From a virus (Duplodnaviria; Heunggongvirae; Uroviricota; Caudoviricetes): a stretch of DNA of 11,469 bases. The notes under the pieces were generated by a model. It had not been told where the DNA came from, did not search any database, and was given only the letters and a program-made list of their open reading frames with translations. Location: the IMG/VR virus record IMGVR_UViG_2695420644_000002. One strand, written 5' to 3'. The first letter of the stretch is position 1; each line of letters opens with the position of its first letter. The position numbers were made by a program, and so were the translations under genes. Positions 1-11,469 of this stretch are shown here, one piece after another.

Positions 1-1
1 G

Positions 2-154
2 GAAGCCTTCTCCGGACGCTCACAGGCTATCCGGGAAGCCGTCGGGGAAGACGCCTCGCTGAAATCCCGGGATGTGGCGGCACTGGATACGCGTAAATCC
101 AAACAGCACGTCGATCCTGAAGTCAGAATGGCTGAATGGATGCAGACGCTGTGA
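2..154 (+). CDS. 3' end of an unidentified ORF (partial, runs off the window start)
   Basis: Frame 2 is open from base 2 and translates [50 protein letters not shown] with TGA at 152-154. GC-rich third codon positions look coding. Product not recognised; a 50-codon open frame is not strongly significant by itself. Confidence 0.3.
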
Positions 155-393
155 GCAAGGTCACGGAAATCGTTACCAGTAATCCAGGCGATATAGAAAA
201 GTGTGTCGCCTTTTTTCACGGTATAGGTACTGCCGCTATAACTGCCTTTCGGAATGTTCCCATACTGACGGTTATAGACGATGCGTCCGTTTTCCATCTG
301 TACCGGCTGCTGAGCTACTGGCTGCACTGGCTGGATTTGCGGTTGTTGAGTAGCCTGAATTTGTGGCTGCTGTACCGGCTGAATTTGCGGTTG
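154..393 (-). CDS. nlpD: NlpD (LysM-domain murein hydrolase activator lipoprotein), internal fragment
   Basis: Minus-strand translation gives ...[80 protein letters not shown]: the Q/P-rich repeat tract followed by the LysM motif of E. coli NlpD. The match stops at both ends (N run at 396-398; divergence after DLA near 153). Confidence 0.8.
300..393 (-). repeat. Imperfect tandem repeats encoding the QPQIQPV tract inside the nlpD fragment
   Basis: Repeated units such as ctggatttgcggttg / ctgaatttgcggttg / ctgaatttgtggctg on the plus strand. This is a native feature of nlpD, not a separate element. Confidence 0.6.
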
Positions 394-400
394 CTNNNCG

Positions 401-1006
401 AATATGCTCGCGCTTAACCACTTGCATAAAACCGATATTGGCGCGCTCCGGAAAACGCTCGTGGCTTTCCAGAACAGGACCAAGCGTTTCTACCGCCGCG
501 GTATCGACATCATCGACCTGAATCACGCAATGCGGATTTCCCATCGACACCACGCCGCATAAGATTGTCTGCTCGGCGGCGCGCATAATATAGGTCTTTT
601 CCGCTTTGTTAGCGCGAAACGGCACGGCGGAAGGTTCGAAGTTGGGTTCGCCCATATTTACGCGGACCAGATCATCATCGGTGACGGTCAGAACCATCCG
701 CCCGTTGGCGGTGCTGACGCGGATATCACGCTTATTGGTCAGTCCTTTCAGACGCACAAAACGGGCAAAGCAGCGCGCACCGTTGCCGCACTGCGCCACT
801 TCACTGCCATCAGCATTGAAAATGCGATAGTGAAAATCCAGTTCAGGATCATACGGCGGCTCAACCACCAGCAGTTGGTCAAACCCTACCCCCAGGTGCC
901 GATCAGCCAGGCGACGAATCAGCTCCGGTGAAAAAAAGACATTCTGCGTTACCGCGTCGACGACCATAAAATCGTTGCCAAGGCCATGCATTTTCGAGAA
1001 CTGCAT
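401..1006 (-). CDS. dapF: Diaminopimelate epimerase DapF, 5' end intact, 3'-truncated at the N run
   Basis: Translation [80 protein letters not shown]...[10 protein letters not shown] matches E. coli DapF over about 200 residues. GGAG lies 6 nt upstream of the ATG at 1006. The frame runs into NNN at 396-398 and the sequence beyond is nlpD. Confidence 0.9.
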
Positions 1007-1042
1007 CATTTACTCCAATCACGCGGGTACAGAAACTGACTT

Positions 1043-1246
1043 TTAGTAATTCACCTGGGATGGACCATCGCCAGTGGCGCGATCGTTTTTATCCGGCACC
1101 GTGGATTGCGTTTGCGTCTCTACCGGTTTGGTCGGCGGCGGTGCGTTTTTATCTGCAGGCGGGAAATAGAGCGGACCTTTCAGACCGCAGCCCGTCAGGC
1201 TGAAGAGAGTAAGTAATACAGTGAGTGCCTTAAACACGTTTTTCAT
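1043..1246 (-). CDS. yifL: Small lipoprotein YifL
   Basis: 67-aa ORF MKNVFKALTVLLTLFSLTGCGLKGPLYFPP... with a lipobox (LTGC) and a Pro/Thr-rich tail, lying immediately upstream of dapF as in the E. coli yifL-dapF operon. Confidence 0.85.
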   Translation of the reverse strand: MKNVFKALTVLLTLFSLTGCGLKGPLYFPPADKNAPPPTKPVETQTQSTVPDKNDRATGDGPSQVNY

Positions 1247-1524
1247 TATGGATTGCCTGTAAAGTTCATCGCTTTCTGCTTTCTATCATCGCAGGAGAAG
1301 ACGTAAAAGCAAGCGTTTAGCGACTCTTTATGAAGTCTGAAAAGTGAGGAAATGCTGCGAGTATAACGCTTACTCGTGGGGATTTATGTTTTGCTGGTAG
1401 TTTCGTGATCGGCACCTCGCGCCAGGATGGCTTTATGCACTATCGCAATGTGGTTTGTTTGTTGTCTTTTTTAGTTCCGTCAGCGTGAGGATGCTCGCTC
1501 GGTAAACCTGATCATAATGTNNAN

Positions 1525-1677
1525 AAACGCTTGCTGTTGCCAGAACGGCAGTTCTCCGCCGCTTTCGTCACTGCTATTGAACGGCGAGTTGACGACATTG
1601 AGCGAGTCACCGCGTTTTTCAGAAAAGCCCATCGCCTCGCGGGTCAGATCTTCAATTTGCTTCATCTGTTCGTTGCT
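1525..1677 (-). CDS. fliF: Flagellar M-ring protein FliF, short internal fragment
   Basis: Minus-strand translation PLSNMKQIEDLTREAMGFSEKRGDSLNVVNSPFNSSDESGGELPFWQQQAF resembles the C-terminal region of enterobacterial FliF. Bounded by the N run at 1521-1524 and an in-frame stop at 1678-1680 that would not be present in an intact gene. Confidence 0.55.
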
Positions 1678-1680
1678 GAG

Positions 1681-2067
1681 AGGCTACGTGATGCAGATGC
1701 ACTGGTGGAAAAATCAATCTGGCTGATTGGTGGTGATGGCTGGGCTTACGATATCGGCTTTGGCGGTCTGGATCATGTATTGAGTTTGACGGAAAACGTC
1801 AACATTCTGGTGCTGGATACGCAATGCTATTCCAACACCGGTGGTCAGGCGTCGAAAGCGACACCGCTGGGTGCAGTAACTAAATTTGGCGAGCACGGCA
1901 AACGTAAAGCGCGTAAAGATCTTGGCGTCAGTATGATGATGTACGGTCATGTTTATGTGGCGCAGATTTCTCTCGGCGCGCAGCTGAACCAGACGGTGAA
2001 AGCGATTCAGGAAGCGGAAGCGTATCCGGGGCCATCGCTGATCATTGCTTATAGCCCGTGTGAAGAG
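1681..2067 (+). CDS. ydbK: Pyruvate:flavodoxin/ferredoxin oxidoreductase (PFOR), TPP-binding domain fragment
   Basis: Translation [98 protein letters not shown]...[12 protein letters not shown] carries the GDGW...YSNTGGQ thiamine-diphosphate motif region of PFOR. Only about 129 codons of a protein over 1100 aa are present, flanked by unrelated sequence. Confidence 0.7.
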
Positions 2068-3039
2068 TACTTTGGTCTGCTGTGAACCCAGGGTGATGAT
2101 GGTGGTATAGATCGCGCTGGAGAAGAAGCCCAGAGCGAGAATTGACCACGCCATATGTGCTGGTGTTCCGGTGTTAAAGACGTACATCAGAATCGCAGCC
2201 AGACCAGCCAGTACGGTCAGAATGCGTTGCAAATCAAAGAAGCGAAGAATAAAGCTGAACGCCCACATGCCGACCATGTATGACATCCAGAAGTTACTCA
2301 CCAGCGTGCCCGCGTCGTTCAGGCTCATGCCCAGGCCTTTGGCATACTCAGGCACCCAGGAGATAAAACCTAACTGACCGAGGATGTAGCACAACGCCGC
2401 AACAGAGAGAAACAGTACGCCGATCCCCCACTTTTCTTTCTCTACCGGAGCATCCGTTTTTGGCGCATGTTTGCCCAGCGCCGGGAACTCACAGCCGAAG
2501 GTCAGAATAAAAATAGCGACATCCACCAGCCCGATGCAGGCATAAACCCAGTACCACTCAATGCTGCGCGCCAGTAGAAACGCGGCGATCATTGGGAAAA
2601 TCATCCCAGCCATACTGAAGAAGGAGTCGGTAAATAACAGGCGGGAACCGCGCTGACGCCCTTCATACATTTGTGTTACCAGGAATGTACCAATCGACAT
2701 GGTGATGCCGCTGACCACCCCGAGAATGAACATCGCCGCCGAGAACAGCGCCAGGCTGTGGCTGAACATCAAACCGGCAACCGCCAGCACCATCAGGAGA
2801 AAGCCAAAACGTAACTGCGTTTTCAACGGGACGATTTCCATCAGCCAGGCGTTGAGGAAGATAGAGATTAAAATGCCGGCGTTGAGGAAGGTGAAGGTAT
2901 TACTCATACTGGAAACAGGCAGATTGAAATAATCGGCGATATTTCCCATCACCATCCCGGTGACAATAACCAACGCACCAGTCAGTGCGTAGGAGAGAAA
3001 GCTAATCCATGTGAGCTTGATGCGATTGCTGTTAGTCAT
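2068..3039 (-). CDS. tsgA: MFS transporter TsgA, 5' end intact, 3'-truncated
   Basis: Translation [44 protein letters not shown]...[16 protein letters not shown] matches E. coli TsgA for about 324 residues. The remainder of the computed 441-aa ORF is antisense to the ydbK fragment, so the gene is cut near 2067. Confidence 0.85.
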
Positions 3040-3691
3040 GATTGGCCTGCGTTCAAAAATAAAATGGCATAGCGGGATATGCCGCGAGCGGGCGATTTTA
3101 GGTGATTTTGTGATCTGTTTAAATGTTTTATTGCAATCGGTTGCTAAATTGCATTTTAAGAGTGGTGCCTCCAGGTGACGTTAACCAGTTAACAATTAAC
3201 GCCGGATACAGAGAATCCACCCATAACACTGTTTTTGGTTTTAACTGTTCCGCGTGCGCTCAGCCGCATTCACCACATCACAAAATTCACTTTAAAAAGG
3301 GCGGCAGAGCAGTCACGGAGTAAAACTGATACCGCCAAACGTCACCAGAAAATTGATAACAGAGGGCGTTGCAGCGGGGTTGTCACTTAAGCGTATGGTC
3401 AACCTGACAACCCGGTGTCCTCAACGGGGAANGNNTAACCCCGCCATACTTACCGCCGCGCCATTTCGCGGGTTGCCACAACCGGAAGCGCACGGTCGAC
3501 GAAAATTTAACGACAGGCTATCTATGAACCAGCTACCTCGCCGTGCGCTTTCGCGTTATGGTCTGACTTTTCAGGGAAATATCCTTTCAGTAAACTGTCA
3601 GTTCCGGATGCGCACCCGTGTCCGGCGCACGCACTCCACCTCACCCGTGGAGAACTCCTTAATTACTAACCTTAGCTTTGTTGATTAGCTA

Positions 3692-3910
3692 CTAACGCGG
3701 GTATGTAATCATTCTGGCAATGCTTAATGCCGCTGCTTTTTCCAGATTGGTGATATCCTGCTCCAGAGCGGACAGATTTTCAGCCTGCTTAGCCCTGGCT
3801 TCATTAGCCCATTTCAGATCCTGCGCTGCATTAATTTTCTGGCGCATCCACTCATAAAGTTCATCATCGGTATAGTCTGGCGCGATGATGACGGGTTCTC
3901 GTTTCTGCAT
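3692..3910 (-). CDS. Hypothetical prophage small protein (72 aa), predicted helical C-terminal half
   Basis: ATG at 3910 preceded by GAGGAA 7 nt upstream; product MQKREPVIIAPDYTDDELYEWMRQKINAAQDLKWANEARAKQAENLSALEQDITNLEKAAALSIARMITYPR. Last gene of a leftward three-gene string downstream of the repressor. Function not recognised; a size similarity to Rac KilR (73 aa) is only a coincidence-level hint. Confidence 0.55.
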   Translation of the reverse strand: MQKREPVIIAPDYTDDELYEWMRQKINAAQDLKWANEARAKQAENLSALEQDITNLEKAAALSIARMITYPR

Positions 3911-3939
3911 ACTGATTCCTCGCGGTGCTGTTTCGCTTA

Positions 3940-4068
3940 TCAGCCGTTAGATTTTGCCGAACTGGAAAGCGCCTGTTTAAACTCACTGAAGCTGAGAGCT
4001 TCTTCGCCTTCGGCAAGGCCTTCGAAGTATTCTTCGTAAGCCTTTTCCATGATTGTGTCGAAATCCAT
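3940..4068 (-). CDS. Hypothetical prophage small acidic protein (42 aa)
   Basis: Not in the supplied ORF track (below its length cutoff). ATG at 4068 with AGGTGAG 6-7 nt upstream and TGA at 3940-3942; product MDFDTIMEKAYEEYFEGLAEGEEALSFSEFKQALSSSAKSNG (10 acidic vs 3 basic residues). Starts 1 nt after the stop of the upstream ORF. Confidence 0.45.
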   Translation of the reverse strand: MDFDTIMEKAYEEYFEGLAEGEEALSFSEFKQALSSSAKSNG

Positions 4069-4069
4069 A

Positions 4070-4225
4070 TCACTCACCTGAGTTTCTTTCCAGCCAGCGA
4101 CGGGCACCATTTTCGGTTTTAAACGTTTTGCTTTTGGTATACGTCATTGCGGTGAACGTGCCGTCCTGGTTTGGAAACACGCCGTACACCAGAGATTCGT
4201 TGTTGCCAAGATCGATAGTATCCAT
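4070..4225 (-). CDS. Hypothetical prophage small protein (51 aa), Rac ydaF/ydaG-neighbourhood type
   Basis: Likely start is the ATG at 4225 with GAGG 5-8 nt upstream, giving MDTIDLGNNESLVYGVFPNQDGTFTAMTYTKSKTFKTENGARRWLERNSGE. The track ORF 4070..4303 begins at a TTG and is probably an over-extension. Confidence 0.5.
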   Translation of the reverse strand: MDTIDLGNNESLVYGVFPNQDGTFTAMTYTKSKTFKTENGARRWLERNSGE

Positions 4226-4303
4226 GCTGACCTCATTTCCCCTTAACGCTGGGGTAGCGGAACTGTTTGCTGAGAACACCGTGCGGTGTGTTGATGCAAA
4301 CAA

Positions 4304-4400
4304 GATTAGCCATGACTAACATATCGGTCAAGTGATTTTGTATGCTATAGCTAACATAATTGATGTGGTAAAAGATAACTCATTGATGATGTTATCTTTT
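4304..4400. promoter_or_regulatory. Operator/promoter-like region between the repressor gene and the leftward small ORFs (OL/PL-like), with a 10-bp inverted repeat over the repressor stop codon
   Basis: ATGACTAACA at 4312-4321 recurs at 4858-4867 on the other side of the repressor; GATTAGC at 4304-4310; TAGCTAACA at 4348-4356. Perfect inverted repeat AAAAGATAAC (4370-4379) / GTTATCTTTT (4391-4400) with an 11-nt loop. Possible leftward -35 TTGACC (minus strand, 4331..4326) and weak -10 TAATCT (4308..4303). Confidence 0.35.
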
Positions 4401-4799
4401 ATTTGTCCGCTGACGGGCTTTTAGTAATTCTTCAAAGAGTTTATTGAAGTTTTTTACTCGAGCTCGCATTTCGGCGAGCTGGGTATCCTGTTCTGATTCT
4501 GGCAGTGCATTAAACAGCTCAAGGAGCTCTAGTTCTTTGGGGGATAAGGCAACTGGCTTCTCAACAGGTGGTGTTGGTTGCTTGTCTTCATCGCCAAATA
4601 GAATCCATGTTGGTGAGCATTGCAATACTTTGCTGAGGGCAAAAAGGTTCTTCCCTGTAGGTTCACTATCACCCCGTTCCCATTGTGATACAGACACATG
4701 GGAGATTTTCAGGGCTTTAGCAAGAGACCTTTGGGTGTGTTTGAGGTTTTTCCGACGATACCTGATGCGTTCGCCGATAGTTAAATTTTTTGTTTCCAT
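4392..4799 (-). CDS. Prophage repressor, HTH XRE/cI-like (RacR-like), no peptidase domain
   Basis: 135-aa product METKNLTIGERIRYRRKNLKHTQRSLAKALKISHVSVSQWERGDSEPTGKNLFALSKVLQCSPTWILFGDE... shows the classic phage-repressor HTH signature (Q-x-x-V-S-x-WE-x-G...L-x-C-S-P-x-W-I/L). Divergent from a Cro-like gene across an 83-bp intergenic region containing palindromes. Confidence 0.8.
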   Translation of the reverse strand: METKNLTIGERIRYRRKNLKHTQRSLAKALKISHVSVSQWERGDSEPTGKNLFALSKVLQCSPTWILFGDEDKQPTPPVEKPVALSPKELELLELFNALPESEQDTQLAEMRARVKNFNKLFEELLKARQRTNKR

Positions 4800-4882
4800 A
4801 GTTAGCTAATGCTAAATCGTATTGACTATGTTTTTGTTAACATCTATCTTGTTAGTTATGACTAACAATAAAGGTGTTTTAA
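4800..4882. promoter_or_regulatory. Divergent promoter/operator region between the repressor and the Cro-like gene (OR-like)
   Basis: Candidate rightward sigma70 promoter: -35 TTGACT 4822-4827, 17-bp spacer, -10 TATCTT 4845-4850, then AAGGTG 6 nt before the ATG at 4883. Perfect inverted repeat TTGTTAG-N6-CTAACAA at 4849-4868 overlaps the -10. Palindrome TTAGCTAA at 4802-4809 abuts the repressor start codon. Confidence 0.5.
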
Positions 4883-5113
4883 ATGCTTAAAACTGACGCT
4901 CTTTTGTATTTCGGTTCAAAAACAAAACTTGCACAAGCAGCAGGTATTCGTTTGGCTTCGCTTTATAGCTGGAAAGGGGATTTAGTTCCCGAAGGTCGCG
5001 CGATGCGTCTACAGGAGGCATCTGGCGGGGAGCTTCAGTATGATCCCAAAGTTTATGATGAATATCGTAAGACGAAGCGGGCGGGGCGGTTGAACAATGA
5101 AAATCACTCCTGA
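4883..5113 (+). CDS. YdaS-family Cro-like HTH protein
   Basis: 76-aa product MLKTDALLYFGSKTKLAQAAGIRLASLYSWKGDLVPEGRAMRLQEASGGELQYDPKVY... fits the YdaS/Cro-like pattern (KLA..G.....L..W......P...A..L......GG.L). First rightward gene opposite the repressor, with an AAGGTG RBS. Confidence 0.65.
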   Translation: MLKTDALLYFGSKTKLAQAAGIRLASLYSWKGDLVPEGRAMRLQEASGGELQYDPKVYDEYRKTKRAGRLNNENHS

Positions 5114-5618
5114 ACAGGCTCGTGAGGCTCTGGATGCCTGGATATGTCGACCAGGAATGACACAGGAGCAGGCGACGATATTAATCACTGAAGCATTCTG
5201 GGCTTTGAAAGAGCGCCCGAACATCGATGTTCAGCGTGTCACATATGAAGGTGGCGCGATTGATCAGCGAGCGCTTGGCGTTAATCGAGTGAAGATATTT
5301 GAACGCTGGAAGGCTATCGACACCAGGGATAAGCGTGAAAAGTTCACGGCGCTAGTGCCTGCAATTATGGAGGCTATCCGGATTAATGATTTCAGGTTGT
5401 ATCGTGAAATTACTGACGGAAAAAGCATCACGTGCATGATCGCCGGGTTAAACAAAGAATATGGCGATGTGGTGGAGTCCGGACTGCTTTTTGCTGATCC
5501 TGCCGTAGTGGATCGTGAAACTGACGAACTTATAGAAAAAGCAATTGCTTTCAAACTTGCGTATCGACAGCAATACCAACAAAAAGCTGGATGGAATTAT
5601 GAGCCTTCTTTTTGCTGA
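5097..5618 (+). CDS. YdaT-family protein (prophage cII-position regulator, reported toxic on ectopic expression in Rac)
   Basis: 173-aa product MKITPEQAREALDAWICRPGMTQEQATILITEAF...VKIFERWKAIDTRDKREKFTALVPAIMEAI... aligns with my recollection of K-12 YdaT (MKI...W..P.G...KIF.RW....LLPAI). Overlaps the preceding gene by 17 nt and the next by 20 nt. Confidence 0.6.
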   Translation: MKITPEQAREALDAWICRPGMTQEQATILITEAFWALKERPNIDVQRVTYEGGAIDQRALGVNRVKIFERWKAIDTRDKREKFTALVPAIMEAIRINDFRLYREITDGKSITCMIAGLNKEYGDVVESGLLFADPAVVDRETDELIEKAIAFKLAYRQQYQQKAGWNYEPSFC

Positions 5619-6203
5619 ACGCCCACTGGTTATAAACACGCAGCTGGCAATGAAAATTGGCTTAAACGAAGCCATTGTTTTGCAACAACTGCACTACTGG
5701 TTGAGAGATACCAACTCCGGCATGGAATGTGATGGTGTTCGCTGGATTTATAACACAACGGAACAATGGCTGGAACAGTTCCCATTCTGGTCAGAGTCAA
5801 CGTTAAAGCGCGCGTTTGCAAGTCTGAAAACGCTGGGGCTTTTGCGTTGTGAAAAGCTCAATAAATCAAAGCGCGATATGACCAATTTCTACACGATCAA
5901 CTATGGGAGCGAGCTTTTAGATGGTGGCAAATTGAGCGAATCCATCGGTTCAAAATGCGCCGCTCCATCAGGTCAAAATGACACGATGGAAGAGGTCAAA
6001 ATGAAACGCTCCATTGGTTCAAAACGACCCAATGTCATCGGGTCAAAATGGCCTGATGATCTTACAGAGAATACAACAGAGATTACTACAGAGAATAAAA
6101 ACACTTTTCGTCCGGAAGCTTCGCAACCGGACCCGCAGACGACTGAACAGGATTTTTTAACCCGGAACTCCGACGCGGTTGTGTTTAGTGCGAAAAAACG
6201 CCA
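5599..6203 (+). CDS. Lambda O-like replication initiator (Rac ydaU position), 3'-truncated at N 6204
   Basis: Probable start ATG 5599: MSLLFAERPLVINTQLAMKIGLNEAIVLQQLHYWLRDTNSG...LKTLGLLRCEK..., an N-terminal winged-helix-like domain followed by a low-complexity linker encoded by the iteron array (repeated IGSK motifs). The track ORF starts further upstream at 5545. The frame continues into unrelated terminase sequence after the N at 6204. Confidence 0.6.
5941..6099. repeat. Iteron array: five direct repeats at 23-24 bp spacing plus three 12-bp repeats (candidate prophage replication origin inside the O-like gene)
   Basis: Core TCAAAATG at 5950-5957, 5973-5980, 5996-6003 and 6043-6050, with variant TCAAAACG at 6019-6026; unit consensus about tccatcGGTyCAAAATGac. 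Followed by ACAGAGA(A/T)TA repeats at 6064, 6076 and 6088 in a 68% AT stretch. Confidence 0.6.
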
Positions 6204-6205
6204 NA

Positions 6206-6592
6206 GGGGCATCCGTCTACGGAAAGCCTGTGGCCAGCATGCCACGTAAGCGAAACAAAAACGGGGTTTACCTTACCGAAATTGGTACGGATACCGCGAA
6301 AGAGCAGATTTATAACCGCTTCACACTGACGCCGGAAGGGGATGAACCGCTTCCCGGTGCCGTTCACTTCCCGAATAACCCGGATATTTTTGATCTGACC
6401 GAAGCGCAGCAGCTGACTGCTGAAGAGCAGGTCGAAAAATGGGTGGATGGCAGGAAAAAAATACTGTGGGACAGCAAAAAGCGACGCAATGAGGCGCTCG
6501 ACTGCTTCGTTTATGCGCTGGCGGCGCTGCGCATCAGTATTTCCCGCTGGCAGCTGGATCTCAGTGCACTGCTGGCGAGCCTGCAGGAAGAG
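6206..6592 (+). CDS. Lambda-type terminase large subunit (gpA-like), C-terminal fragment
   Basis: Translation ...KPVASMPRKRNKNGVYLTEIGTDTAKEQIYNRFTLTPEGDEPLPGAVHFPNNPDIFDLTEAQQLTAEEQVEKWVDGRKKILWDSKKRRNEALDCFVYALAALRISISRWQLDLSALLASLQEE matches the C-terminal region of phage lambda terminase large subunit as I recall it. Bounded by N at 6204 and NN at 6594-6595, so it lacks both its N-terminal ATPase part and its last ~25 codons. Confidence 0.8.
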
Positions 6593-6595
6593 ANN

Positions 6596-7255
6596 GCCAT
6601 GCTCGACTATCCGGAAGTGGTCGTGCGCTTAACGCTGTGGTGTATCGTTGTTGGCCTCTATCCAACCTTGCTGATGACGTTAATCGGCGTGCTGTGGTTT
6701 CCCAGTCGTGCCATTTCGCAAATGCATCAGGCGCTTAATGATCGGCTTGATGATGCCATTAGTCACCTGACAGACAGCCTCGCACCGCTACCCGAAACGC
6801 GGATTGAAAGAGAGGCGCTGGCGCTACAAAAACTCAATGTCTTTTGCCTCGCGGACGATGCCAACTGGCGAACTCAAAACGCATGGTGGCAAAGCTGCGT
6901 GGCAACGGTAACCTACATTTACTCGACGCTGAATCGCTACGATCCCACCTCTTTTGCTGATTCTCAGGCAATTATTGAATTCCGACAAAAATTAGCTTCA
7001 GAAATCAACAAGCTGCAGCATGCCGTTGCTGAAGGTCAGTGCTGGCAAAGCGACTGGCGGATCAGTGAAAGTGAAGCGATGGCGGCACGGGAATGTAACC
7101 TGGAGAATATCTGCCAGACGTTGTTACAACTGGGTCAGATGGACCCGAATACGCCGCCAACGCCCGCAGCCAAACCGCCATCAATGGCCGCCGATGCTTT
7201 TACCAATCCAGACTATATGCGCTACGCGGTAAAAACGCTGCTCGCCTGTTTGATC
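6596..7255 (+). CDS. FUSC-family (fusaric acid resistance / aromatic acid exporter-like) inner membrane protein, internal fragment
   Basis: Translation AMLDYPEVVVRLTLWCIVVGLYPTLLMTLIGVLWFP...PDYMRYAVKTLLACLI: a hydrophobic segment, a long soluble linker, then the characteristic start of the second membrane domain. Which E. coli paralogue is not determinable from memory. Confidence 0.55.
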
Positions 7256-7258
7256 NGT

Positions 7259-7873
7259 TGCGCCGTAGCCCTGTACCACGTTCAGCACGCCCGCCGGAAT
7301 ACCGGCTTCCAGCGCCAGCTCACCCAGGCGGTCAGCGGTCAGCGGGGAGAGTTCTGACATCTTCAGCACCGCAGTATTGCCCAGCGCAAGACACGGCGCG
7401 ACCTTCCATGTGGCGGTCATAAACGGCACGTTCCACGGCGATACCAGCGCACAAACGCCTACCGGTTGCACCAGCGTGTAGTTGAGCATCTTGTCGTCAA
7501 CCGGATAGGTCTTGCCGTTCATCTGCTGGCAGACTTCCGCGAAAAATTCAAAGTTGTGAGAAGCGCGTGGGATCAACACATTTTTGGTCTGATGGATCGG
7601 CAGGCCCGTGTCCGCGGTTTCCATCGCGGCGATCTCAGGCACGTTCTGGTCGATCAGATCGCCCAGACGGCGCATCAGGCGCGCACGCTCTTTCATCGGC
7701 AGATTGGCCCATTTCGGGAACGCCTCTTTCGCTGCCGCTACCGCCTGATTGATCTCCGCTTCACCGCCAGAGGCCACATCCGCCAGCACTTCACCCGTCG
7801 CCGGATTGGTGGTCTGGAAGTAGTCGTTACCTGCAACATTTTTGCCGTTGATCCAATGATTTACTTTTTTCAT
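7259..7873 (-). CDS. hpaE: 5-carboxymethyl-2-hydroxymuconate semialdehyde dehydrogenase HpaE, N-terminal ~205 codons (3'-truncated at N 7256)
   Basis: Translation MKKVNHWINGKNVAGNDYFQTTNPATGEVLADVASGGEAEINQAVAAAKEAFPKWANLPMKERARLMRRLGDLIDQNVPEIAAMETADTGLPIHQTKNV...VVQGYGA matches HpaE of the E. coli 4-hydroxyphenylacetate meta-cleavage operon. GAGGAA RBS; start ATG overlaps the hpaG stop (ATGA at 7870-7873). Confidence 0.9.
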
Positions 7874-9159
7874 TTCGCTGTTTCCTCACTCACAATTCGG
7901 TTCACCAGGCAGCCCACGCCTTCTACTTCCACCACTACTTCATCGCCAGGCACCACGTCAGATAAGCCTTTTGGTGTGCCGGTGGCGATCATGTCGCCCG
8001 GATTCAGGGTCATAAATTCGCTTAAGTAGGCGATCAGGAAGGGCACGCTGAAGATCAGATCGGCGGTGGTGCCTTGCTGGCGTAACTCGCCGTTGACGAA
8101 GGTGCGAAGGGTCAGATTATGCGGGTCCGGGATCGCCTCTTTCGGCACGATGGTTGAAAGCATCGGCGTCAGTCCGTCGCGGCTTTTTACCCGCAGGTTA
8201 GGGCGGTAGTAGTTTTCCAGATAGTCGCGAATGGCGTAGTCGTTACACACGGTGTAGCCCGCGACATAATCCATGGCATCGGCTTCGCTGACGTTACGCG
8301 CCTGTTTGCCAATAACTACCACCAGCTCCGCTTCATAGTGCATGTATTCAATATTGTTTGGACGCACGGAGGTCTGGTTATCGCCAGTGAGGGTATTTGG
8401 CGCTTTCAGGAACACCAGCGGTTCTTCCGGTGGCTTAAATTCCAGTTCGCTGGCGTGGTCGGCGTAGTTCAGGCCGAGGGCAAACAGCGTGCCGTGCGGG
8501 TGTGGCTGCGTTGGGAAGCTCTTGCGCGTGGTCACTTCACGTTCGTCCACTACCGGATTTTCCAGCGGCGGGAAACCTTCTGCGAGAACACGAACGCGAT
8601 CGCCTGGCTGTATTTCCACGCGCGCCTGTGGCGTGCCGAGCAGAATGGCATCGCCTGGATTCAGTGTGGCAAATTCGCTCAGGGCGCTCAGCAACTGCGC
8701 GGCGTTACGTTGTAAATCGGCGGTATTCCAGTGATCGGCAGGACGCCCGTTGATCTCGGTATAGATGGTCAGATTATCGACATTGCTGAGAGCCACGGTT
8801 TCGCCAATGGGGCAGAATCCATCACGACATTTTGCTTTGATTGCCGGGCGGTAAAAGCTCTCTTCCGGCAGGCTGACGTCGTTAGCCAGCGCATATCCGG
8901 CGATGTACTCTGCCGCATCTTCTTCACGTACTTTCGTCGCCGTTTTTCCCACAATCAGCGCAACAGTCGCACCGCTCAGTACCTTTTCACCCTGTGGAAA
9001 GGGAATCGGTTCACCGCAACCAATCACCGTATTGCGCGGTTTAATAAACCAGACCGCAGTTTTAGGCGGGGCTTTGTAGGGGGATTGCTGGAACGCTTCC
9101 TGCCATGCATCAAGTTGGCTGCGATGGTTCAACGCTACGGCGAAGATAGTGCCTTTCAT
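7870..9159 (-). CDS. hpaG: Bifunctional 2-oxo-hept-3-ene-1,7-dioate isomerase / 5-carboxymethyl-2-oxo-hex-3-ene-1,7-dioate decarboxylase HpaG (complete, 429 aa)
   Basis: Translation MKGTIFAVALNHRSQLDAWQEAFQQSPYKAPPKTAVWFIKPRNTVIGCGEPIPFPQGEKVLSGATVALIVGK... with two FAH-like repeats. ATG at 9159 has GAGGAG 5 nt upstream; the track ORF adds two codons from a GTG at 9165. Length matches HpaG. Confidence 0.9.
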   Translation of the reverse strand: MKGTIFAVALNHRSQLDAWQEAFQQSPYKAPPKTAVWFIKPRNTVIGCGEPIPFPQGEKVLSGATVALIVGKTATKVREEDAAEYIAGYALANDVSLPEESFYRPAIKAKCRDGFCPIGETVALSNVDNLTIYTEINGRPADHWNTADLQRNAAQLLSALSEFATLNPGDAILLGTPQARVEIQPGDRVRVLAEGFPPLENPVVDEREVTTRKSFPTQPHPHGTLFALGLNYADHASELEFKPPEEPLVFLKAPNTLTGDNQTSVRPNNIEYMHYEAELVVVIGKQARNVSEADAMDYVAGYTVCNDYAIRDYLENYYRPNLRVKSRDGLTPMLSTIVPKEAIPDPHNLTLRTFVNGELRQQGTTADLIFSVPFLIAYLSEFMTLNPGDMIATGTPKGLSDVVPGDEVVVEVEGVGCLVNRIVSEETAK

Positions 9160-9430
9160 TACCACTCCTCGGATTCGATCATCTTAATCATTAATATGTT
9201 AATGATTACTTTTATTCCCGATTGCGTAGTTTGGCAAAAGTAAGTGATGTAAATGTGATCTAATTAACAAACTATTTACATTTAAGGATAATAAAATATT
9301 AAATATCAGTAAGTTAATAAAATATCATCAATTTTGATAAAATCAGGAATTGCAGGGGCAGCGCAGTCCCGGTAACGTGACGATTAACTGTTTCTATATT
9401 AATGATTTTGAATTTTTCAGGGGAAAGATA
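9160..9430. promoter_or_regulatory. hpaG-hpaR divergent control region: HpaR operator-like palindrome, CRP-like site, AT-rich tract
   Basis: Perfect inverted repeat TAATCATTAA-TATG-TTAATGATTA at 9185-9208 just upstream of hpaG. CRP-like TGTGA-N6-TAACA at 9254-9269 (one mismatch to TGTGA-N6-TCACA). The whole region is strongly AT-rich. Confidence 0.55.
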
Positions 9431-9877
9431 ATGCACGACTCACTAACCATTGCGTTGCTCCAGGCGCGAGAAGCGGCGATGAGTTATTTTCGCCCAATCG
9501 TTAAACGGCATAATTTGACTGAGCAACAGTGGCGCATCGTGCGTATTCTGGCGGAAAGCCCATCAATGGATTTTCACGATCTGGCGTATCGCGCCTGCAT
9601 TTTGCGCCCAAGCCTGACCGGGATCCTCACGCGGATGGAACGCGACGGTTTAGTGTTGCGATTAAAGCCGATCAATGATCAGCGGAAGCTCTATATCTCG
9701 CTGACCAAAGAGGGGCAGGCGCTGTATAACCGCGCCCAGACACAGATTGAAGAAGCCTATCGGCAGATTGAAGCTCAGTTTACTGCCGAGAAAATGCAAC
9801 AGTTAACCCATCTGCTAGAGGAATTTATTGCTCTGGGTAATTCCCGACAAGAAGACATCCCGGGCGATAATGAATAA
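9431..9877 (+). CDS. hpaR: MarR-family repressor HpaR of the homoprotocatechuate (hpa) meta operon (complete, 148 aa)
   Basis: Translation MHDSLTIALLQAREAAMSYFRPIVKRHNLTEQQWRIVRILAESPSMDFHDLAYRACILRPSLTGILTRMERDGLVLRLKPINDQRKLYISLTKEGQALYNRAQ..., a MarR-type winged helix, divergent from hpaG. ATG at 9431 preceded by AGGGGAAAG; the track ORF starting at 9350 is an upstream over-extension. Confidence 0.9.
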   Translation: MHDSLTIALLQAREAAMSYFRPIVKRHNLTEQQWRIVRILAESPSMDFHDLAYRACILRPSLTGILTRMERDGLVLRLKPINDQRKLYISLTKEGQALYNRAQTQIEEAYRQIEAQFTAEKMQQLTHLLEEFIALGNSRQEDIPGDNE

Positions 9878-9904
9878 CTTTTTAGTATCTGATAACCAGC
9901 GCNT

Positions 9905-10861
9905 GAAACATGGCATTACGACTTCCATCATCGGCGCGGAGTGATTGTTGAAGGCGGCAAGATGAGTAACCTTGATGCGATGGATATTACCGCGCCGTAT
10001 ACGCCTGGAGCGCTGCGCGGCGGCAGCCATGTGCATGTCTTTAGCCCGAACGGTGAAAGGGTGAGCTTTACCTATAACGACCATGTAATGCATCAACTCG
10101 ATCCGGCGCTGGATTTGCGAAACGTCGGTGTTGCTGCACCGTTTGGCCCGGTCAATGTACAAAAGCAGCATCCGCGTGAGTACAGTGGTAGCCACTGGTG
10201 CGTGCTGGTGAGTAAAACCACGCCCACGCCGCAGCCAGGCAGTGATGAAATCAATCGTGCTTATGAAGAAGGATGGGTAGGAAATCACACGCTGGCGTTT
10301 ATTGGCGACACACTTTCGCCAAAGGGCGAGAAAGTGCCGGAGCTGTTTATCGTTGAGTTACCGCAAGATGAAGCTGGCTGGAAAGCGGCAGGTGATGCGC
10401 CGTTAAGTGGAACGGAAACCACCCTGCCCGCGCCACCGCGCGGCGTCGTGCAGCGACGTTTAACCTTTACCCACCATCGGGCTTATCCGGGGTTAGTCAA
10501 CGTCCCGCGCCACTGGGTGCGCTGTAATCCGCAGGGTACGCAAATCGCGTTTTTAATGCGTGATGATAACGGCATTGTGCAACTATGGCTTATCTCGCCA
10601 CAGGGCGGCGAGCCGCGCCAGTTAACCCATAACAAAACGGATATTCAGTCTGCATTTAACTGGCATCCATCAGGAGAATGGTTGGGCTTTGTGCTGGATA
10701 ATCGAATTGCTTGTGCCCATGCGCAAAGCGGCGAGGTTGAGTATTTAACCGAAAACCACGCCAATCCGCCTTCTGCGGATGCCGTGGTCTTCTCACCGGA
10801 TGGTCAATGGCTGGCGTGGATGGAAGGTGGCCAGCTGTGGATCACCGAAACTGATCGCTAA
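9905..10861 (+). CDS. yidR: YidR-like DUF3748 beta-propeller protein, 5'-truncated at N 9903
   Basis: Frame is open from 9896 through the N with no plausible start until the internal GTG at 9941 or ATG at 9962. Translation ETWHYDFHHRRGVIVEGGKMSNLDAMDITAPYTPGALRGGSHVHVFSPNGERVSFTYNDH...GQWLAWMEGGQLWITETDR; convergent with yidQ. The yidR symbol is from memory of the K-12 yidQ neighbourhood. Confidence 0.6.
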   Translation, partial: ETWHYDFHHRRGVIVEGGKMSNLDAMDITAPYTPGALRGGSHVHVFSPNGERVSFTYNDHVMHQLDPALDLRNVGVAAPFGPVNVQKQHPREYSGSHWCVLVSKTTPTPQPGSDEINRAYEEGWVGNHTLAFIGDTLSPKGEKVPELFIVELPQDEAGWKAAGDAPLSGTETTLPAPPRGVVQRRLTFTHHRAYPGLVNVPRHWVRCNPQGTQIAFLMRDDNGIVQLWLISPQGGEPRQLTHNKTDIQSAFNWHPSGEWLGFVLDNRIACAHAQSGEVEYLTENHANPPSADAVVFSPDGQWLAWMEGGQLWITETDR

Positions 10862-10862
10862 A

Positions 10863-11195
10863 TCAGTTATCAGGCATTCTGGCCGGTGGAATAACCGCAT
10901 TGGTGGCTTGCGCGTTGGCTTCGCTTTTTTCAACGCGTGAGCGCACCGAGCTGTCTTTGCGGAACACATCCCACGGCAGTAAAAGCGTGTCCATCACAGC
11001 GGTAAACGGCATATCGAGAATCGCCAGCGACTTAGTGCCCCAGTTGGTTTCATCGTCGCCAATCATGGTGGCGCTGGCGCGGGTGCCGGGATACGTTCCT
11101 TCTTTCCCCCCGGTATGGGACATCACGCTGGAGCATCCTCCGAGTAATGTCATTCCGCTGCATATCATGAACGCTAACAACACATTTCTTATCAT
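10863..11195 (-). CDS. yidQ: Outer-membrane lipoprotein YidQ (DUF1375), complete 110 aa
   Basis: Real start is the internal ATG at 11195: MIRNVLLAFMICSGMTLLGGCSSVMSHTGGKEGTYPG... with signal peptide and lipobox (LGGC). The 34-codon N-terminal extension in the track ORF (from 11297) is not supported. Stop codon lies 1 nt from the yidR stop. Confidence 0.8.
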   Translation of the reverse strand: MIRNVLLAFMICSGMTLLGGCSSVMSHTGGKEGTYPGTRASATMIGDDETNWGTKSLAILDMPFTAVMDTLLLPWDVFRKDSSVRSRVEKSEANAQATNAVIPPARMPDN

Positions 11196-11382
11196 AATAA
11201 ATTCATCTGTTGATCGTGGGTGTTGGCCTGATGAGTTATAGCGATCCCTTGCTGAAAATAACATCATCATTACGTCGCTCTGTGGCGGCAATCGCACTTT
11301 AACGTTTCGTGCTGCCCCCTCAGTCTATGCAATAGACCATAAACTGCAAAAAAAAGTCCGCTGATAAGGCTTGAAAAGTTCA

Positions 11383-11469
11383 TTCCAGCCGCTTGTTCAG
11401 TACATGGTAAAGACGCTGAGTTTCAACCTGATAACGTTCAATAGCGTAAGGAATGGTTTGGGGGGCTGC
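11383..11469 (-). CDS. yfcG: GST-like disulfide-bond oxidoreductase YfcG, short internal fragment (29 codons, runs off the window end)
   Basis: Minus-strand translation AAPQTIPYAIERYQVETQRLYHVLNKRLE matches my recollection of an internal YfcG segment, which continues NSPWLGG in the native protein. Here it is followed instead by TGA and the yidQ upstream region, so the gene is cut at about 11383. Confidence 0.55.

Follow-up and report, generated by a model that had tools for sequence, protein, structure and literature searches.

A DicA/DicC immunity switch, very probably of Qin type, with a full-length YdaT-family gene

Related immunity switches

Work on the immunity switch of the Qin prophage of Escherichia coli K-12 dates back to the 1980s, with further studies in 2012-2024; it covers the switch itself, the main operator, the antirepressor and the lethal output. 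The genes dicA, dicC and ydfX of this prophage (b1570, b1569 and b1568) are compared here with a locus at positions 4304-5618 of an 11,469-nt stretch of Caudoviricetes DNA (IMG/VR record IMGVR_UViG_2695420644_000002), the whole of which is called the window. The DicA and DicC proteins, the spacer between their genes, the operator Oc, the dicBp DNA and the ydfA-ydfB-ydfC-dicF series are the same in both; the third gene differs, being truncated in K-12 (ydfX, 96 aa) and intact in the window (173 aa). The order ydfC-ydfB-ydfA-dicA / dicC-YdaT family-O is shared with the Qin prophages of E. coli W and ATCC 8739 and with phage PhiR42_1, and no differences are listed inside the colinear piece.

Three more systems are related at a greater distance. 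The Rac prophage of K-12 (racR/ydaS-ydaT, b1356-b1358) has the same layout and logic, a third gene of the same Pfam family (PF06254), and a gene, ydaF, homologous to ydfA. It differs in the length of YdaT (140 aa vs. 173), in sharing only a 29-residue conserved core with the 173-aa protein, and in having genes which do not overlap; toxicity has been reported for ydaS and ydaT in Rac, for dicB, dicF and ydfD in Qin. In P22 (c2/cro) the DNA-binding domain of C2 resembles the N-terminal domain of DicA, DicC falls in the P22_Cro family, and the operators are 8-N4-8 dyads as in Qin, but of different sequence; moreover, C2 carries an S24 autocleavage domain where DicA has a short helical C-terminus. 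The third system is paaR2/ydaS-ydaT of CP-933P, whose YdaT is a CII analogue, a tetramer with a POU domain (PMC9986795).

Identity of the locus

Three genes make up the locus: a 135-aa repressor gene (4392-4799, minus strand), a 76-aa Cro-like gene (4883-5113, plus strand) and a 173-aa YdaT-family gene (5097-5618, plus strand). The first two diverge from an 83-bp spacer (4800-4882), the last two overlap by 17 nt (5097-5113). The placement given for all of them in the earlier note agrees exactly with the list of open reading frames, and they are not chance frames, since each has significant family matches. The 173-aa gene overlaps by 20 nt the 5' part of an O-like/DnaD-like replication initiator gene (5599-6209, plus strand; PHROG 6493 at 2.6e-37, PHROG 391 at 7.6e-29), a 966-bp coding sequence in E. 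coli W, annotated as 'DNA replication protein O' in PhiR42_1, which in the window is interrupted by a mosaic junction, colinearity with E. coli W stopping at 6209. The two gene overlaps, 17 nt and 20 nt, fit an operon of the cro-cII-O type. The layout is that of a lambdoid immunity region: the repressor and Cro genes diverge, operator dyads at promoters flank the repressor gene, and a CII analogue and an O-like gene lie downstream of Cro.

The 135-aa repressor has the sequence of K-12 DicA (b1570; 100% identity, BLASTP), and matches over residues 4-135 of 135 the NCBIfam model NF007257, 'transcriptional repressor DicA' (234.3 bits vs. a cut-off of 101). It is a CI/P22 C2-type protein with an N-terminal helix-turn-helix (Pfam HTH_3, 60.8 bits), matched by structures of the P22 C2 N-terminal domain at 8e-20. 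No Pfam match to Peptidase_S24 was found in DicA, and direct reading of its 135 residues found neither an Ala-Gly nor a Cys-Gly dipeptide; the lack of a LexA-type cleavage module has also been described in the literature (10.1101/2023.04.14.536235). DicA is not SOS-inducible, because the short helical C-terminus replaces the S24 autocleavage domain. The 76-aa protein is 100% identical to K-12 DicC (b1569; BLASTP), and scores above the cut-offs of NCBIfam NF007282 (159.5 bits vs. 130) and Pfam P22_Cro (PF14549; 44.1 bits vs. 30.2). The prophage immunity switch proposed in the earlier note, a helix-turn-helix repressor devoid of a peptidase domain and divergent from a Cro-like gene, is thus borne out, and the Pfam search returned family matches for both rightward genes.

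At the DNA level, the Qin prophages of E. coli W and ATCC 8739 are 100% identical to the window across 3436-6203, PhiR42_1 (PV340562; genes annotated cI/Cro/cII/O) 99.9% identical over the same interval. RefSeq names in the matching E. coli W locus are dicA, dicC and 'toxin YdaT family protein', and this copy adjoins rspAB/ynfA, i.e. lies in Qin, not in Rac. N positions aside, the window differs from K-12 within 3163-5376 at just two positions, 3543 and 4632, and both control regions (the spacer including Oc, and the dicBp region) are identical to K-12 DNA. The window is a mosaic, departing from E. coli W, ATCC 8739 and PhiR42_1 outside 3163-6209. Judged from its sequence, the locus at 4304-5618 very probably comes from a lambdoid prophage of the Qin type and is its immunity region, made up by the DicA/DicC switch and a CII-like gene; no observation speaks against this identification. 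The DicA/DicC switch of Qin is real, already known and ordinary.

The earlier note had read the same genes as a diverged variant of the Rac RacR/YdaS/YdaT module, and on that reading the essential job of the repressor would be to silence two rightward 'toxin' genes. The architecture, a helix-turn-helix repressor divergent from Cro-like and YdaT-family genes, is indeed common to the two modules, the third protein truly belongs to the YdaT family, DicC and YdfX have been termed the Qin counterparts of YdaS and YdaT (PMC11879457), and the leftward operons of Rac and Qin have DNA in common, ydfA and ydaF being 87.5% identical. Membership of DicC in the YdaS family fails, as its match to Pfam YdaS_toxin (PF15943) is weak and below the gathering threshold (18.3 vs. 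30 bits, E = 0.0021), P22_Cro being the family matched instead. The alignment with K-12 proteins separates the modules further: neither the repressor and RacR nor the Cro-like protein and YdaS show any BLASTP similarity at E<=10, and similarity to YdaT is limited to 29 residues (41% identity), which refutes the identity of the locus as a diverged Rac copy. Rac-like architecture and a YdaT-family gene are what remains of the proposal; repressor and Cro identity do not, both proteins being complete matches to DicA and DicC, and in E. coli W the neighbouring rspAB/ynfA place the locus in Qin. A Rac-type module is accordingly very improbable here.

The Rac-type reading also conflicts with published work on where lethality lies. 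The growth-inhibiting genes described in Qin are the leftward dicB and dicF, and dicC with a truncated ydfX is tolerated in K-12. dicA can be deleted or depleted once leftward dicB/dicF are removed (bioRxiv 10.1101/2023.04.14.536235; PMC3441716). According to these studies, the lethal arm of Qin is the leftward dicBF operon, not the rightward genes. In the window the leftward operon, on the minus strand, includes ydfA (4070-4225; Pfam DUF1391, 96.8 bits; annotated by RefSeq in E. coli W), the first gene of the DicA-repressed operon, ydfB (3940-4068) and ydfC (3692-3910), named after RefSeq and identical in sequence in E. coli W and K-12, and the small RNA DicF, an ftsZ antisense regulator (3299-3350; Rfam RF00039, full length 1-52, 76.7 bits vs. 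a gathering score of 48). dicB is absent from the window.

Operators, promoters and the predicted switch

The DicA operator Oc, TTGTTAGTTATGACTAACAA, is found at 4849-4868. It is a perfect 8-N4-8 dyad, has no other match in the window (0.04 expected by chance), and on the opposite strand reads as the published Oc, 5'-TTGTTAGTCATAACTAACAA (PMC3441716). A consensus scan identified a sigma-70-like promoter, TTGACT-17-TATCTT, at 4822-4850 (plus strand), taken as the dicC promoter (PR analogue), the -10 of which overlaps Oc; putative -35 and -10 hexamers and the mapped dicC start site have been reported in this region (PMC3441716). Three operator-like dyads were spotted by eye in the spacer, at about 4800-4818, 4828-4846 and 4849-4868, and short palindromes are present at 4802-4809 (TTAGCT/AGCTAA) and 4835-4842 (TGTTAA/TTAACA). 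Three operators, Oa, Om and Oc, had been predicted from sequence, but DicA was found to bind in vivo at Oc only, repressing dicC and activating dicA (PMC3441716). We infer that Oa and Om are the first two spacer dyads. As two of the three predicted operators are unbound in vivo, a lambda-like three-operator picture may not hold.

A second control region, the dicB-operon promoter region (PL analogue), lies at about 4303-4357 (minus strand), between the repressor gene and ydfA; the left edge of the feature as noted, 4304, cuts it. Two operator-like sites, ATGTTAGTCATGGCTAATCT (4322-4303) and ATGTTAGCTATAGCATACAA (4357-4338), are found there, and direct repeats D1 and D2 tie them to the spacer operators. 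TGTTAGY half-sites number seven in the window vs. 1.8 expected, four residing within the two control regions, and those of dicBp at 4315-4321 and 4350-4356. A dyad search allowing up to 3 mismatches recovered Oc alone, the dicBp sites having by our own count about 5 mismatches each, and the dicB promoter was not flagged by the consensus scan; TTGACC at 4330-4325, chosen by eye, is tentatively its -35. Support for the dicBp sites comes from the clustering of half-sites and from the literature, repression of dicBp by DicA having been published (10.1101/2023.04.14.536235). An AT-rich hairpin spans the dicA stop codon (4369-4401, minus strand). Its two arms, of 11 nt each, are 100% complementary, the RNA folds with -11.8 kcal/mol (z = -5.0), and the hairpin may serve to separate dicA from dicBp as a terminator or insulator.

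The following steps have been demonstrated by experiment in K-12, on identical protein and operator sequences, and would apply here. DicA, as a CI/P22-C2-type repressor, would bind Oc over the -10 of the dicC promoter and, from there, turn off rightward transcription of dicC, the YdaT-family gene and the O-like gene while stimulating the weak dicA promoter; by repressing the leftward dicB promoter, downstream of dicA, it would keep ydfABC-dicF-dicB silent. DicC, the Cro analogue, would bind the same control regions and repress dicA. A ChIP peak of DicC has been reported on either side of dicA, together with a 48- to 84-fold repression of this gene (PMC11430063). The two proteins would form a bistable switch. 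The Rem antirepressor, temperature or urea would flip it, or it would flip spontaneously, RecA-mediated cleavage playing no part.

The full-length YdaT-family gene

The 173-aa protein agrees with K-12 YdfX at every one of its residues 1-93 (93/93, BLASTP), and K-12 DNA homology of the gene ends at window position 5376. The length of 173 aa, which the earlier note counted among the divergences from Rac YdaT, is that of the complete gene, of which K-12 retains ydfX as a truncated form. YdfX has been named the Qin homologue of YdaT (PMC11879457). The match of the single sequence to PF06254 is marginal (24.2 bits vs. a threshold of 21, E = 4.5e-5), but 13 of 14 family members match this family, the best at 8e-18, and PHROG 163, 'CII-like transcriptional activator', is matched at 5.5e-40. 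NCBIfam has no model for the protein. The family is small: an exhaustive HMMER search gathered 63 representatives at E<=1e-3, of which many are fragments.

A single-sequence search of the PDB gave marginal values (E about 0.06-0.08), so that a family profile was needed. The profile matched over residues 2-110 the structures 8bt1 (9.4e-16) and 3c4r (1.5e-15): about 110 N-terminal residues thus align at 1e-15 with the POU-like DNA-binding domain of the CP-933P protein. Foldseek, run on the model of the protein, also returned 8bt1 as top match (probability 1.00, TM 0.54, E 5e-3). The AlphaFold model, built on a shallow 8-sequence alignment, is useful for residues 1-110; helices predicted at 111-127 and 135-163 have pLDDT below 50. 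CP-933P YdaT and the 173-aa protein have in common the core N..IF.RW...T....K...L.PAI and a gene position following the Cro analogue, and differ in that identity is about 28% and the C-terminal model of the latter is of low confidence. The recognition-helix pair R70-W71 is invariant in the family alignment, and corresponds to R57/W58 of Rac YdaT (PMC11879457). On homology grounds the protein belongs to the YdaT (CII-analogue) family, and the assignment of the overlapping third gene in the earlier note was correct.

As a CII analogue, the protein would consist of an N-terminal POU-like helix-turn-helix domain and a helical C-terminal region, the latter probably tetramerising. It is most likely a sequence-specific regulator, which would feed back on the dicA/dicC decision as YdaT does in CP-933P and Rac. 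The YdaT box TTGATTN6AATCAA is not evident at the dicC/YdaT-family junction, where the genes overlap and therefore leave no intergenic site, and a search of 5060-5140 for a YdaT-box-like dyad gave nothing convincing. A 14-bp perfect palindrome at 5219-5232 was considered as a YdaT box and rejected, not being significant given the number of spacings tried.

K-12 and its derivatives have the truncated form only, the result of a single deletion of 4,799 bp which cut the gene after codon 93, leaving ydfX (96 aa), and also removed the O-like, DUF977 and methyltransferase genes. The ydfX stump retains residues 1-93 of the DNA-binding-like region of about 110 residues, and lacks the C-terminal helical half. 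Among 5,426 complete E. coli genomes, about 2,121 carry the gene intact. To our knowledge the full-length protein has never been studied, because K-12 has only the stump.

The protein might alternatively be mainly a toxin-like growth inhibitor held off by DicA, its truncation in K-12 having been selected for removing toxicity. The 'toxin' label in Pfam and RefSeq, the exclusive presence of the truncated form in K-12 strains, the lethality or toxicity of Rac YdaT on expression (PMC5700377, PMC11879457) and the toxicity of overproduced lambda CII, as cited in PMC5917428, all point this way. Yet the gene is kept intact in so many complete E. coli genomes and in a deposited complete phage genome, the K-12 deletion took replication genes too and was not aimed at the YdaT-family gene, and the solved relative binds DNA sequence-specifically as a tetramer and corresponds to CII in position and function (PMC9986795). 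A primary role as a toxin is therefore unlikely.

The value of the comparison is modest and lies in two corrections: the module is that of Qin (DicA/DicC) and not a diverged Rac, and it is the leftward dicBF arm that makes the repressor essential. The small point which remains is an intact CII-like gene, common in E. coli and absent from K-12. There is a reasonable, though less than even, chance that the full-length protein is a working CII analogue, setting DicA establishment or biasing the DicA/DicC switch. If so, the bistability and the frequency of spontaneous induction measured in K-12 would be the behaviour of a crippled circuit, and the switch would behave differently where the gene is intact, as it is in roughly 40% of E. 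coli genomes.

Assignment of the locus to Qin

The three-gene feature read in the earlier note as a Rac-like immunity switch is real, because all three ORFs have significant family matches, and its limits had been correctly set. ORF list and sequence agree on the architecture described there: a 135-aa repressor ORF on the minus strand (4392-4799), a divergent spacer of 83 bp (4800-4882), a 76-aa Cro-like ORF on the plus strand (4883-5113), and a 173-aa ORF (5097-5618) overlapping the latter by 17 nt. In Pfam the repressor matches HTH_3 (60.8 bits) and Phage_CI_repr, and no peptidase domain was detected in it. The 173-aa protein is indeed of the YdaT family, its YdaT_toxin score being narrowly above threshold (24.2 vs. 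21 bits). Assignment of the 76-aa protein to the YdaS family is not borne out, its YdaS_toxin score being below threshold (18.3 vs. 30 bits), and P22_Cro being the Pfam family matched instead (44.1 bits, threshold 30.2). The NCBIfam models for DicA and DicC recognize the repressor (234 bits, cut-off 101) and the 76-aa protein (159.5 bits, cut-off 130), respectively.

The three proteins were compared by BLASTP to those encoded by the Qin and Rac regions of E. coli K-12. Identity to DicA is 100% for the repressor and to DicC 100% for the Cro-like protein; the 173-aa protein shows 100% identity to YdfX over its residues 1-93. RacR and YdaS gave no alignment at all to the window proteins, and the sole match of K-12 YdaT spans 29 residues (41% identity). 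In DNA comparisons, interval 3436-6203 shows no difference (100% identity) from the Qin-type prophage carried by E. coli W, by ATCC 8739 and by many further strains. The RefSeq annotation of the E. coli W-type copy reads ydfC, ydfB, ydfA, dicA, dicC, a "toxin YdaT family protein", and then a hypothetical (O-like) gene. Identity to phage PhiR42_1, from ECOR13, is 99.9% over the same interval, the depositors' gene names being cI, Cro, cII and O. Both protein and DNA identities therefore assign the module to Qin, and not to a diverged Rac. The locus is the textbook, already known DicA/DicC switch of Qin, carrying the intact form of ydfX. "Rac-like" holds as an analogy, not as an identity, and what had been taken for a divergent variant of the Rac module is a different, equally well-known one. 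The only DNA similarity of K-12 Rac to the 3163-6209 piece is in the leftward operon, where ydaF is 87.5% identical to ydfA (4089-4216), and the kilS-kilR spacer 78.8% identical to the dicF-dicB spacer (3163-3304). Such leftward-only similarity is the usual lambdoid mosaic pattern; by sequence comparison, Qin and Rac have PL-operon modules in common, and unrelated immunity genes.

K-12 Qin is colinear with the window over 3163-5376 and, N positions aside, differs at 3543 and 4632 only, neither residing in a control region. At 5376 the K-12 prophage has lost, by deletion, 4,799 bp present in its E. coli W counterpart (4358-4359 in the K-12 Qin region, 10942-15740 in the E. coli W region). Gone with this segment are the 3'-terminal 242 nt of the YdaT-family gene, hence the 96-aa ydfX of K-12, as well as the genes for the O-like, DUF977 and SAM-methyltransferase proteins and a remnant of ISNCY. 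The intact gene is frequent in E. coli: among 5,426 complete genomes, 2,121 contain at least 80% of it. The dicA immunity core was found in one deposited phage only, and its flanks are common to HannyBb, mEp460 and PPompW phages.

Mosaic composition of the window

Of the window, only the 3163-6209 interval aligns colinearly, as a single piece, with any E. coli genome, and no complete E. coli genome accounts for more than 27% of the window at one location. This piece ends 39 bp before dicB, the DicB gene being absent from the window, and the O-like gene is interrupted at 6209. The flanks (1-3162 and 6210-11469) combine fragments of unrelated genes that are not linked in E. coli, including dapF, lptM, fliF, pyruvate:flavodoxin oxidoreductase, tsgA (fused to foreign sequence), mdtO and hpaE/G/R. 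The hpa genes presumably denote a non-K-12 background. Short N runs (396-398, 1521-1524, 3432-3435, 6204, 6594-6595, 7256, 9903) coincide with several of the apparent junctions or are close to them. ORF 6179-6593, following the Qin piece, carries what we take, by eye, to be the C terminus of a large terminase subunit of the lambda type, fused in frame to an mdtO fragment, a further indication that the joining is artificial or aberrant. Possible origins of the window are heavy rearrangement or engineering of a genome, chimeric assembly, or deliberate shuffling of the sequence.

Control elements and operation of the switch

The spacer hosts a perfect 8-N4-8 dyad, TTGTTAGTTATGACTAACAA, at 4849-4868, the sole such site in the window (0.04 expected by chance). 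It is the reverse complement of Oc, the operator demonstrated by Yun et al. to be the DicA binding site, and at which a single A-to-C change abolishes binding (PMC3441716). A consensus scan gave a promoter-like site directed toward dicC, TTGACT-17-TATCTT (4822-4850), and the -10 element of this site overlaps with the dyad. Two more dyad-like sequences in the spacer (about 4800-4818 and 4828-4846) are probably the predicted operators Oa and Om, neither of which bound DicA in the same study (PMC3441716). The interval between dicA and ydfA is the dicB promoter (dicBp) region, the PL analogue, and holds two sites (4303-4322 and 4338-4357) in which the TGTTAG(T/C) half-site recurs; of the seven copies of this motif present in the window, four fall within the two control regions, 1.8 being expected in the whole window. 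An AT-rich hairpin with an 11-bp stem spans the dicA stop codon (4369-4401, minus strand; RNA -11.8 kcal/mol, z = -5.0), and from its sequence might be a candidate terminator or insulator of dicA transcription versus the dicB promoter just downstream. The leftward operon includes, in full length, the small RNA DicF, which regulates ftsZ by antisense (3299-3350, minus strand; Rfam, 76.7 bits).

Since neither the proteins nor the control DNA differ from those of K-12, results published for that strain apply directly. Binding of DicA to Oc leads to repression of dicC and activation of dicA (PMC3441716); DicA also represses dicBp, which rises 22-fold upon dicA deletion, and DicC, by repressing dicA, is required for stable switching, thus forming a bistable CI/Cro-like switch (10.1101/2023.04.14.536235). 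DicC ChIP-seq peaks flank dicA on both sides, and DicC induction lowers dicA expression 48- to 84-fold (PMC11430063). DicA features neither an S24 domain (Pfam) nor an Ala-Gly site (sequence); induction proceeds via the Rem antirepressor, temperature or urea, and not via RecA. In published work the harmful outputs, dicB, dicF and ydfD, all belong to the leftward arm, so that the test earlier suggested, deletion of the repressor gene together with the two rightward genes, is misdirected. Both groups took away dicB/dicF to handle dicA mutants (PMC3441716; 10.1101/2023.04.14.536235).

The full-length YdaT-family protein

The 173-aa gene is the sole part of the locus outside the coverage of the K-12 work. 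K-12 YdfX retains residues 1-93 of a region of ~110 residues aligning with the YdaT DNA-binding domain, and lacks the remainder of the protein, including the C-terminal helical half. In published work YdfX already figures as the YdaT homologue of Qin, and DicC as the YdaS counterpart (PMC11879457).

No binding site for the 173-aa protein was found by dyad and palindrome search. A perfect 14-bp palindrome, GAACATCGATGTTC, resides inside the gene (5219-5232). It is not significant for the search space, but no other strong dyad occurs in the rightward genes, and it is a possible candidate regulator site.

The family is small, as judged by exhaustive HMMER search, and 13 of the 14 members aligned pass Pfam YdaT_toxin. 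Over positions 2-110, the profile derived from this 14-sequence alignment matches 8bt1 and 3c4r, the two YdaT structures solved, at about 1e-15. The AlphaFold model is usable over residues 1-110 (pLDDT about 70-86) and poor further on; its best Foldseek match in PDB is again 8bt1 (probability 1.00, TM 0.54), the next hits being well apart. PHROG 163, "CII-like transcriptional activator", matches residues 1-155 (5.5e-40). YdaT of CP-933P is a tetramer in which a four-helix bundle connects the POU-like HTH domains, and a CII analogue binding a dyad between ydaS and ydaT (PMC9986795). In its recognition helix, Rac YdaT uses an Arg-Trp pair that is conserved (PMC11879457); the equivalent pair, R70-W71, is invariant in the family alignment. 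PHROG, profile and model matches, along with the invariant pair, point to the 173-aa protein as a putative DNA-binding CII analogue.
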